From UHGV virus genome UHGV-0109493: 30,683 nucleotides of DNA; one strand, 5' to 3'. Below the pieces are notes generated by a model that saw only the letters and a list, made by a program, of their open reading frames with translations, was not told the DNA's origin and did no database searches. The position numbers and the translations under genes were made by a program. The DNA is from a virus. Below are positions 13,715 to 14,862 of this stretch, one piece after another. How positions within the stretch are numbered: position 1 is the stretch's first letter; each line of letters opens with the position of its first letter.

Positions 13715-13797
13715 TTTCTTACGTATAAACTGCTTCAATTTTGCTATGCTTCGCAAAGCTGTATCGCGAGGCGAACCAAGCGCATGAACTTTGATAC
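13715..13797 (+). promoter_or_regulatory. Candidate late promoter (PR'-like) and Q-utilisation region
   Basis: Assigned by position between the putative Q gene and the terminator at 13798-13821. I could not place -35/-10 hexamers confidently. Confidence 0.3.
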
Positions 13798-13821
13798 AAC
13801 CCGCCATTGAGCGGGTTTTTT
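13798..13821 (+). terminator. Rho-independent terminator (tR'-like) of the short late leader
   Basis: aacccgc cattga gcgggtt followed by tttt, about 85 bp after the Q stop. Confidence 0.6.
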
Positions 13822-13943
13822 ATGTCCGAAAAACGGCAGAGAACATAAAACGTGCTGGTGGTTGCGAATACTGGTCTTTCGGCTTGTATTTTTGTAAATC
13901 GATATATACTTATCTTGTGACCAGTAATGTCAGGGCAATTGAT

Positions 13944-14687
13944 ATGAATGAAGCCTGTTCTGTTGTTTTTGTTCATTCCCCGTTTGTTGTGCTCTTTGAA
14001 GGAAAAGAGCTCTCTCTTGAAAGTGGTAGTGCACTTCTTGTCAGGGGGGGGGCTGGATCGTTATTGCCCTTTTCGGAATGTTTTCGGCGAATAAGTCTCA
14101 GTGAATCGACAATTAGCCGTTACCTGTTGTGTGGAGACGAAAAACAGGATGTAGTTTTAGTCCGGCAAATACCACGATATCTTTGCGTGAGTTTTCCCAA
14201 GGCAGAATTGATGGGCATCCTGATTGATTATCTTTGTGAGGAAAAGATTCATACGGACAATTTAGCGGAAATGCTTTCCTTTTCGTGTCTGGCGTTTTTC
14301 TCATCAGAGAAAATGTTTTCGTCGTTTCTGACCGCGTGTATTAGCAATATTAGTGACAGGCTTAGTGCATTGTTTCGTACGGACATTGCAGCAAACTGGA
14401 CTCTGAGAGATGTGTCTTCGCGGTTATGTATCAGTGAAAGTTTGTTAAAAAAAAGACTGAAAGAAGAAGGCACCTGTTTCAGTGAGTTGTTGCTTACAGA
14501 GAGAATGAGAATGGCAGCAATGCTGTTGAGTCAATCTCGTTGCGCCATCAACAGAATCGCTGCTCAGTGCGGCTATAATTTTACATCTTATTTTATCAGC
14601 GTATTCAGGAGTTATTTTGGTGTTACACCGGCAGGTTACAGGATGGCTGCATTCAATGAGATGAGTTTAAGTGTTACTCAAGAATAA
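13944..14687 (+). CDS. AppY-like AraC-family transcriptional regulator (cargo gene)
   Basis: 247-aa product with C-terminal AraC signature RIAAQCGYNFTSYFISVFRSYFGVTPAGY and LRDVSSRLCISESLLKKRLKEEGTCFSELL, closely resembling recalled DLP12 AppY. Visibly AT-rich. Confidence 0.8.
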   Translation: MNEACSVVFVHSPFVVLFEGKELSLESGSALLVRGGAGSLLPFSECFRRISLSESTISRYLLCGDEKQDVVLVRQIPRYLCVSFPKAELMGILIDYLCEEKIHTDNLAEMLSFSCLAFFSSEKMFSSFLTACISNISDRLSALFRTDIAANWTLRDVSSRLCISESLLKKRLKEEGTCFSELLLTERMRMAAMLLSQSRCAINRIAAQCGYNFTSYFISVFRSYFGVTPAGYRMAAFNEMSLSVTQE

Positions 14688-14711
14688 TTGAATTTTGCAC
14701 TCATTGAAAAC

Positions 14712-14736
14712 AGGCTCGCTGCGGCGGGCCTTTTTC
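14712..14736 (+). terminator. Candidate intrinsic terminator after the AraC gene
   Basis: 8-bp stem (aggctcgc / gcgggcct, one G-U pair) followed by ttttt, about 25 bp after the stop. Confidence 0.5.
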
Positions 14737-14862
14737 ATATCCGCGCCGCGCCCGGCGCACATCACATCAGATAACACCACACAAAAGGCATCTGCGGGTG
14801 CCTTTGACAGGGTGTTTTTACGGGCCGCTGGAGGCCCTTTTTTATTTGTGGGAGGAAAAAGC

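Follow-up and report, generated by a model that had tools for sequence, protein, structure and literature searches.

The UHGV virus genome UHGV-0109493 (30,683 nucleotides, hereafter the window) carries a mobile, moron-type cargo cassette at approximately 13798–14738, in the slot occupied by stx in Stx phages. The sole gene between the Q-like late antiterminator gene and the holins lies in this cassette (13944–14687, +) and encodes an AraC/XylS regulator of 247 amino acids. Judged from its sequence, the regulator is a member of the GadW/YdeO/AppY/PatE/Psr subfamily, N-terminal domain included. On balance, we favor the reading that the cassette carries a PatE/Psr-branch regulator that raises host acid resistance and is co-transcribed with the late operon on induction. 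The original prediction had described an AT-rich, AppY-like AraC gene with its own downstream terminator, carried as cargo between Q and the lysis genes. Gene, slot, base composition and terminator all proved to be present within 13715–14740, the interval that runs from the first base past the Q stop codon to the end of the regulator gene's terminator. The features of the locus are listed here.

13172–13714, +: Q-like late antiterminator gene (DUF1133 type; Pfam and PHROG), the last early-right gene before the cargo slot
13711–13739, +: candidate late promoter pR', predicted (−35 TTGATT at 13711–13716, 17-bp spacer, −10 TTCAAT at 13734–13739)
13798–13825, +: tR'-type intrinsic terminator, left cassette boundary (hairpin 13798–13817 plus T tract; terminator scan and folding)
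13826–13943, +: leader of 118 bp, co-transferred with the gene (blastn and alignment)
13944–14687, +: AraC/XylS regulator gene, 247 amino acids (open reading frame (ORF) and Pfam; N-terminal domain about residues 1–135, double helix-turn-helix (HTH) about 136–233)
14712–14738, +: intrinsic terminator of the cassette, right boundary (hairpin 14712–14731 plus T tract; scan and folding)
14822–14843, +: second, weak terminator-like hairpin of the holin-side backbone (hairpin 14822–14837; terminator scan)
14863–15255, +: first holin (Pfam Phage_holin_8 / Phage_holin_3_7 set for the lysis cassette; PHROG holin)
15245–15523, +: second holin (Pfam, PHROG)
15525–16070, +: GH108 endolysin (Pfam Glyco_hydro_108 plus PG_binding_3)

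Hairpin, leader, gene and terminator occur together in 47 IMG/VR prophage loci (79–100% identity), and the leader is kept at 82–100% identity in these loci irrespective of the upstream Q. The Q genes found in front of the cassette are of the DUF1133 type (90–100%), a divergent DUF1133 type (73–80%), the Phage_antitermQ type (PF06530) or the lambda-Q type (PF03589). It is followed by holins, by a tRNA module or, in the manner of Stx phages, by TerB/DUF1737 genes. Since this unit is constant while Q and the downstream modules vary, we define the cassette as running from terminator to terminator, and this whole segment travels together among phages whose Q genes belong to three unrelated families.

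Homology breakpoints around the regulator fall at 13819 and at 14740–14863. Part of 13715–14740 is matched in 1570 of 5426 complete E. coli genomes, and 65 of the 5426 hold at least 80% of it. In genomes that share only the Q side, the match ends at about 13819, directly past the first hairpin; in those that share only the holin side, it begins at 14740–14771. Where copies of the cassette stand behind other Q types, homology begins at 13798. One such copy, in ETEC6333, corresponds to 13798–14736, is 88% identical and follows a different Q. Strain EC11 has an identical cassette, with an M15 peptidase endolysin where the window has GH108.

The same slot can hold other cargo. ETEC4071 (locus L008, 3431–4649) shares the DUF1367/DUF1364/DUF1133-Q/holin backbone of the window, and a toxin pair replaces the regulator: a scabin-related ADP-ribosyltransferase and a subtilase-family AB5 B subunit (ArtAB-like) occupy the equivalent of window positions 13819–14863. 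In phiSTEC1575-Stx2k, the order is Q, a small HTH gene, a psr-like AraC gene, three tRNAs, stx2AB and holin. These two arrangements confirm that the interval is a Q-to-lysis cargo slot and that it is the one used by stx. Presence or absence on related backbones, a deviating base composition and an own downstream terminator together mark the cassette as moron-type cargo. With a GC content of 42.1%, the regulator gene lies below Q (47.7%), the first holin (59.8%) and the window as a whole (49.1%), so it is AT-rich relative to its flanks as predicted, although its AT excess relative to Q is modest. The terminator hairpin at 14712 is also sound, with a fold of −21.3 kcal/mol (z = −3.7).

ZYB62 equals the window plus an 806-bp tRNA-Arg module between direct repeats of the 26-nt terminator. 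Because this terminator flanks inserted tRNA modules, the comparison suggests that slot modules are exchanged by recombination at terminator hairpins. The terminator repeat lies at 14713–14738 in the window and at 4042–4067 and 4848–4873 in locus L009, and it is also present in L010. In ETEC6333, the window stretch 14713–14736 aligns on both sides of a tRNA-Gly module.

The window phage is a mosaic. None of the complete E. coli genomes contains at least 80% of window positions 5000–29999. The IMG/VR locus L018 matched each tested segment of 12885–16070 at 99–100%, with DUF1367 at 92%. Among INPHARED phage genomes there was no homolog of the regulator at 60% identity or above, and exact peptide patterns found no close relative of it in the GTDB species-representative genomes.

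Residues 158–233, at the C-terminus of the regulator, score above the Pfam cutoffs for HTH_18 (51.7 against 33.6 bits) and HTH_AraC (49.8 against 26.6 bits), and a profile comparison with 3mkl, the structure of the GadX DNA-binding domain, gave 9e-39. BLASTP comparisons with proteins from annotated genomes gave the following values.

PatE (ECs_0287): 40% identity over 234 amino acids, 158 bits, 54% in the C-domain
GadW: 36% identity, 150 bits
YdeO: 37% identity, 145 bits
PsrA / Psr-like: 36–37% identity over about 235 amino acids
AppY: 30% identity, 117 bits, the lowest in the subfamily

PatE, GadW, YdeO, Psr and AppY are collinear with the regulator from residue 1; for GadX, AdiY, EnvY and YbcM, the match is confined to the DNA-binding half. 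When the N-terminal 135 residues alone were used in BLASTP, YdeO (4e-17), PatE (1e-14), GadW (9e-12), Psr (3e-9) and AppY (2e-3, 21% identity) were still recovered, and GadX, AdiY and EnvY gave no significant match. Residues C5, S6 and V7 do not vary within the subfamily. The recognition helices of the regulator, SESLLKKRL and SYFISVFR, fit the subfamily patterns SESL[LI]KK.L and SYF[IT]..F, which are nearly invariant, and are nearly identical among the regulator, PatE, PsrB, GadW, YdeO and AppY. In a neighbor-joining tree, the window clade is joined first by an unnamed cluster (bootstrap 87) and next by the clades of PatE and Psr (79 of 100); YdeO-like proteins and GadW/AppY branch outside this group.

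We take ATG 13944 as the correct start of the gene, rather than the upstream TTG 13791, because all relatives begin with the common M-x3-C-S-V N-terminus at this point and because RefSeq annotates an identical 744-bp coding sequence in strain EC11 (WP_032316927.1). The psrA gene of Sakai Sp4 (ECs_1087; L003 23678–24391) is annotated in RefSeq as 195 amino acids from MHYGKV, and its ORF extends upstream to 237 amino acids beginning with MVVVCSV. Given that a motif of this type is found across the subfamily, the RefSeq start looks too short.

Studied relatives point to a common set of host targets. PatE and PsrB activate gadE and hdeAB through a common segment of the hdeA promoter (reviewed in PMC10877973), and PsrA and PsrB repress type III secretion via GadE and YhiF (PMC10877973, PMC8565820). 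AppY directly activates gadE, gadY and nhaR (PMC10057817). PatE and Psr are only 36–37% identical, as distant from each other as either is from the regulator. Because these diverged proteins have targets in common and the recognition helices are conserved, activation of the AR2 acid-resistance regulon is the best-supported prediction, and homology makes it slightly better than an even bet. At host promoters, for instance those of gadE and hdeAB, the regulator would bind AT-rich sites. Glutamate-dependent acid resistance would then rise, and in hosts positive for the locus of enterocyte effacement, type III secretion would fall indirectly.

The candidate pR' is the best hexamer pair within 13690–13800 in a hexamer scan; a separate consensus scan made no call there. 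It overlaps the Q stop codon, and alignment shows the block to be conserved in other DUF1133-Q prophages. Without Q action, a transcript from this candidate would stop at the 13798 hairpin. On induction, following the lambda model, Q-modified RNA polymerase starting just past the Q gene would read through three terminators to the holins. Since the polymerase must pass all three, the regulator would be co-transcribed with the late operon. The 14822 hairpin folds no better than shuffled sequence (z = −0.6) and sits in a part common to phages without the regulator gene. In a lysogen, a low level of the regulator could arise in one of two ways: some transcription from a constitutive late promoter may pass tR', or the leader may contain a promoter that is weak or needs an activator. 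Co-transfer of the leader with the gene suggests that it carries some signal.

If the candidate pR' is real, lysogens would constitutively produce a terminated leader RNA of about 80 nt (13746–13825, +), comparable to the StxS small RNA of Stx phages. Rfam searches of the whole window, with a permissive run on 13600–14900, found nothing in the locus (best E = 0.12), and the predicted pR'–tR' leader RNA belongs to no described Rfam family. The window's only Rfam match was sok at 11387–11563. A Chi site, GCTGGTGG, lies at 13854–13861 (+) in the conserved leader just past tR'. It is retained in the O157 TB21-1 and ETEC6333 leaders and has one mismatch in Sakai Sp4. The window has three Chi sites (13854 +, 15177 − and 15466 +) where 1.25 are expected; 11 of 100 shuffles reach three.

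Several results weigh against the acid-resistance reading. Identity to any studied relative is at most 40%, and in a phmmer search of 1.84 billion 50%-identity representatives, the regulator formed a cluster apart, whose representative P0004 is 83% identical to it. Identity to the next clusters is at most 43%, and just 8 clusters have E ≤ 1e-30. None of the NCBIfam equivalog models reaches its cutoff, the best being YdeO with 148 bits against a required 348. The N-terminal domain, presumably for signal sensing or dimerization, is only 21–31% identical to its relatives, and its inputs may therefore differ from theirs. The clade that joins the window protein to PatE and Psr comes from a distance method alone, with moderate support and deep branches. 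AlphaFold2, run on a 9-sequence alignment, gave a mean predicted local distance difference test (pLDDT) score of 64, with residues 60–134 below 50, and hence no structural support. The literature contains no mention of WP_032316927. Finally, we found no sigma-70 promoter above chance in the regulator leader by consensus or hexamer scans: the score of the best pair, TTGTAT-N15-TATACT, was matched by 937 of 1000 shuffles. A promoter of the gene's own upstream of 13944 is thus not borne out by these scans. With the leader scan at chance, the expression in lysogens on which a role in lysogenic conversion would depend is putative.

Alternatively, the regulator could be a broader anti-silencing or virulence regulator like Rns, CsvR, ToxT or RegA, with an N-domain ligand such as a fatty acid, acting on H-NS-silenced acquired loci rather than on GAD. 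A profile of the subfamily matched solved structures of Rns/CsvR (1e-30, from position 65) and ToxT (1e-19, from position 24), both extending into the N-domain. The gene and leader are AT-rich, and the carrier strains are largely animal or Shiga toxin-producing E. coli (STEC) isolates. However, the protein is far more similar in sequence to the GAD-type regulators, and the N-domain model is too poor to reveal a ligand pocket. We regard this as unlikely.

We give a still lower rating to functional equivalence with AppY, in which the regulator would activate anaerobic, phosphate-starvation and stationary-phase operons (hya, cbdAB-appA) and stabilize RpoS. AppY is itself prophage-encoded, a pleiotropic regulator in host stress networks (PMC10057817). 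It shares the subfamily and a full-length collinear alignment with the window protein, and the two have the DNA-contact lysine in common: K170 of AppY, whose mutation abolishes DNA binding (PMC10057817), aligns with K169 of the regulator. The description "AppY-like" therefore holds at the level of the subfamily, and since the similarity reaches into the N-domain (E = 0.002), it is not merely generic to AraC domains. It does not hold at the level of orthology. AppY is the most distant named relative at 30% identity, the tree places it on another branch with GadW, and appY occupies a different prophage slot in DLP12. We also found no support for the suggestion that this copy, like AppY, regulates anaerobic and stationary-phase operons. 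The GAD acid-resistance regulon is where the nearer relatives point, and the main direct regulon of AppY includes gadE and so converges on acid resistance anyway.

A more elaborate possibility, which we likewise consider a long shot, is that the cassette is a signal-responsive switch particular to the late-operon slot. Q antitermination would supply a burst of the regulator in the induced minority of cells, or regulated tR' read-through would supply it in lysogens. A gut metabolite would be sensed through the divergent, ToxT/Rns-like N-domain, and the regulon of the protein would be other than GAD. Such a switch would link induction state to the physiology of the host population in a way undescribed for PatE, Psr or AppY.

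It is very unlikely that the regulator acts on the phage itself, on lysis timing, late genes or neighboring cargo. The gene does belong to the late transcription unit and immediately precedes the holins. However, the cassette is dispensable, as close backbones lack it or carry toxin genes in its place. No phage partner is constant across the three unrelated Q families and the varying downstream modules, and the studied relatives act on host genes (PMC10877973, PMC10057817).

Although no promoter was detected and some database copies are truncated (P0006–P0011; L058, L060), there is next to no chance that this is a decaying, non-functional passenger, since the 247-codon ORF is intact, its 90% cluster has 241 member sequences, the invariant family residues are kept and the ratio of nonsynonymous to synonymous substitution rates is 0.29 (against the 88%-identical ETEC6333 homolog). 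That ratio indicates maintenance by selection; the gene is intact and under purifying selection.

The window phage is a lambdoid E. coli prophage, and its left arm contains RecT, RecE, an HTH_3 repressor, YdaT and a DnaC-like gene. The nin-like region includes DUF1367 and YbcO/DUF1364. The product of 13172–13714 matches Pfam DUF1133 with 356 bits, Phage_antitermQ weakly (27.1 bits, cutoff 26), and PHROG 753, "anti-termination protein Q-like", at 8e-80, and the gene has the same position as Q in related prophages. Three minus-strand ORFs that overlap the regulator gene (13719–13976, 14113–14304 and 14249–14473) were treated as chance ORFs, without a family-library search. There are no tRNA genes in the window. 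A hok/sok-type toxin–antitoxin module lies at 11387–11713, where the Rfam sok match (111 bits, 11387–11563) overlaps a 51-amino-acid Hok-like ORF (11558–11713). Two small ORFs of the nin-like region (11039–11302 and 11959–12219, both +) had no Pfam match. Past the lysis genes, the reverse strand encodes a Bor-family lipoprotein (16388–16681, −) and a DUF1398/YbcV-like protein (16906–17316, −), the same arrangement as borD and ybcV in DLP12. The PHROGs label "head protein" for 16906–17316 is doubtful because of its position and strand.

AppY, PatE and PsrA/B rank with the clearest examples of core host stress and virulence networks being rewired by phage genes. The regulator class, the slot and the moron logic have all been published, and the gain here is incremental. 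The branch itself is without literature: it forms its own 50%-identity cluster, is unstudied and occurs in about 1% of complete E. coli genomes. Its carriers were in many cases isolated from cattle or other animals, and in some from food or from humans. If the regulator does activate gadE and hdeAB, it would represent another route by which temperate phages raise the acid tolerance, and hence the gastric passage, of commensal and pathogenic E. coli.

GadW and YdeO have full-length identity of 36–37% to the regulator, and YdeO is both the best N-domain match and the best NCBIfam model. However, gadW and ydeO are core-genome genes in acid-fitness loci, whereas the window regulator is phage cargo. 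AppY (DLP12, K-12) shares the subfamily, domain order, recognition helices and DNA-contact lysine, but appY sits at the far right end of DLP12 beside ompT, after tail-fiber remnants, and the Q–lysis slot of DLP12 holds nmpC. The GC content of appY is 31.7%, compared with 42.1% for the regulator gene. PatE (Z0321/ECs_0287, CP-933H/Sp1) is the best pairwise match among studied proteins and, like the regulator, is prophage-borne and 247 amino acids long. Its identity to the regulator is too low for orthology, and patE and its phage homologs (mEp332, ev099) lie between tail-fiber genes and int/att, unlike the Q–lysis location in the window.

The slot itself is a familiar one. Cargo between Q and S in lambdoid phages (stx1/stx2, nmpC in DLP12, ArtAB-like toxins) lies downstream of pR'/tR' and upstream of the holin, as in the window, and both show presence/absence polymorphism on a common backbone. 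The window slot differs in carrying a transcription factor, where the other cargo is a toxin or porin.

PsrA and PsrB of enterohemorrhagic E. coli O157:H7 (Z1789/ECs_1087 and Z2104) have the subfamily, the size (about 237–247 amino acids) and the CSV motif of the regulator, and psr genes are likewise found between Q and the lysis genes in lambdoid prophages; one of them follows a Q of the DUF1133 type. The order in Sakai Sp4 is Q, CAAX protease, small ORF, psrA and three tRNAs; in O157 TB21-1 it is DUF1133-type Q, small ORF, psr-like gene and tRNAs. The psr cassettes and the window have in common a tR'-type terminator with about 70 bp of leader (13800–13886, 76–80% identical to the sequence upstream of the O157 prophage psr cassettes) and a similar end terminator (14711–14759). 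In the psr cassettes, a small additional HTH gene stands before the psr gene and tRNA genes after it; the window has neither. The proteins are 36–37% identical and fall in separate 50%-identity clusters, and induction of gadE/yhiF with repression of type III secretion is documented for Psr alone (PMC10877973). PsrA and PsrB are the real positional, and probably also the phylogenetic, counterparts of the regulator.

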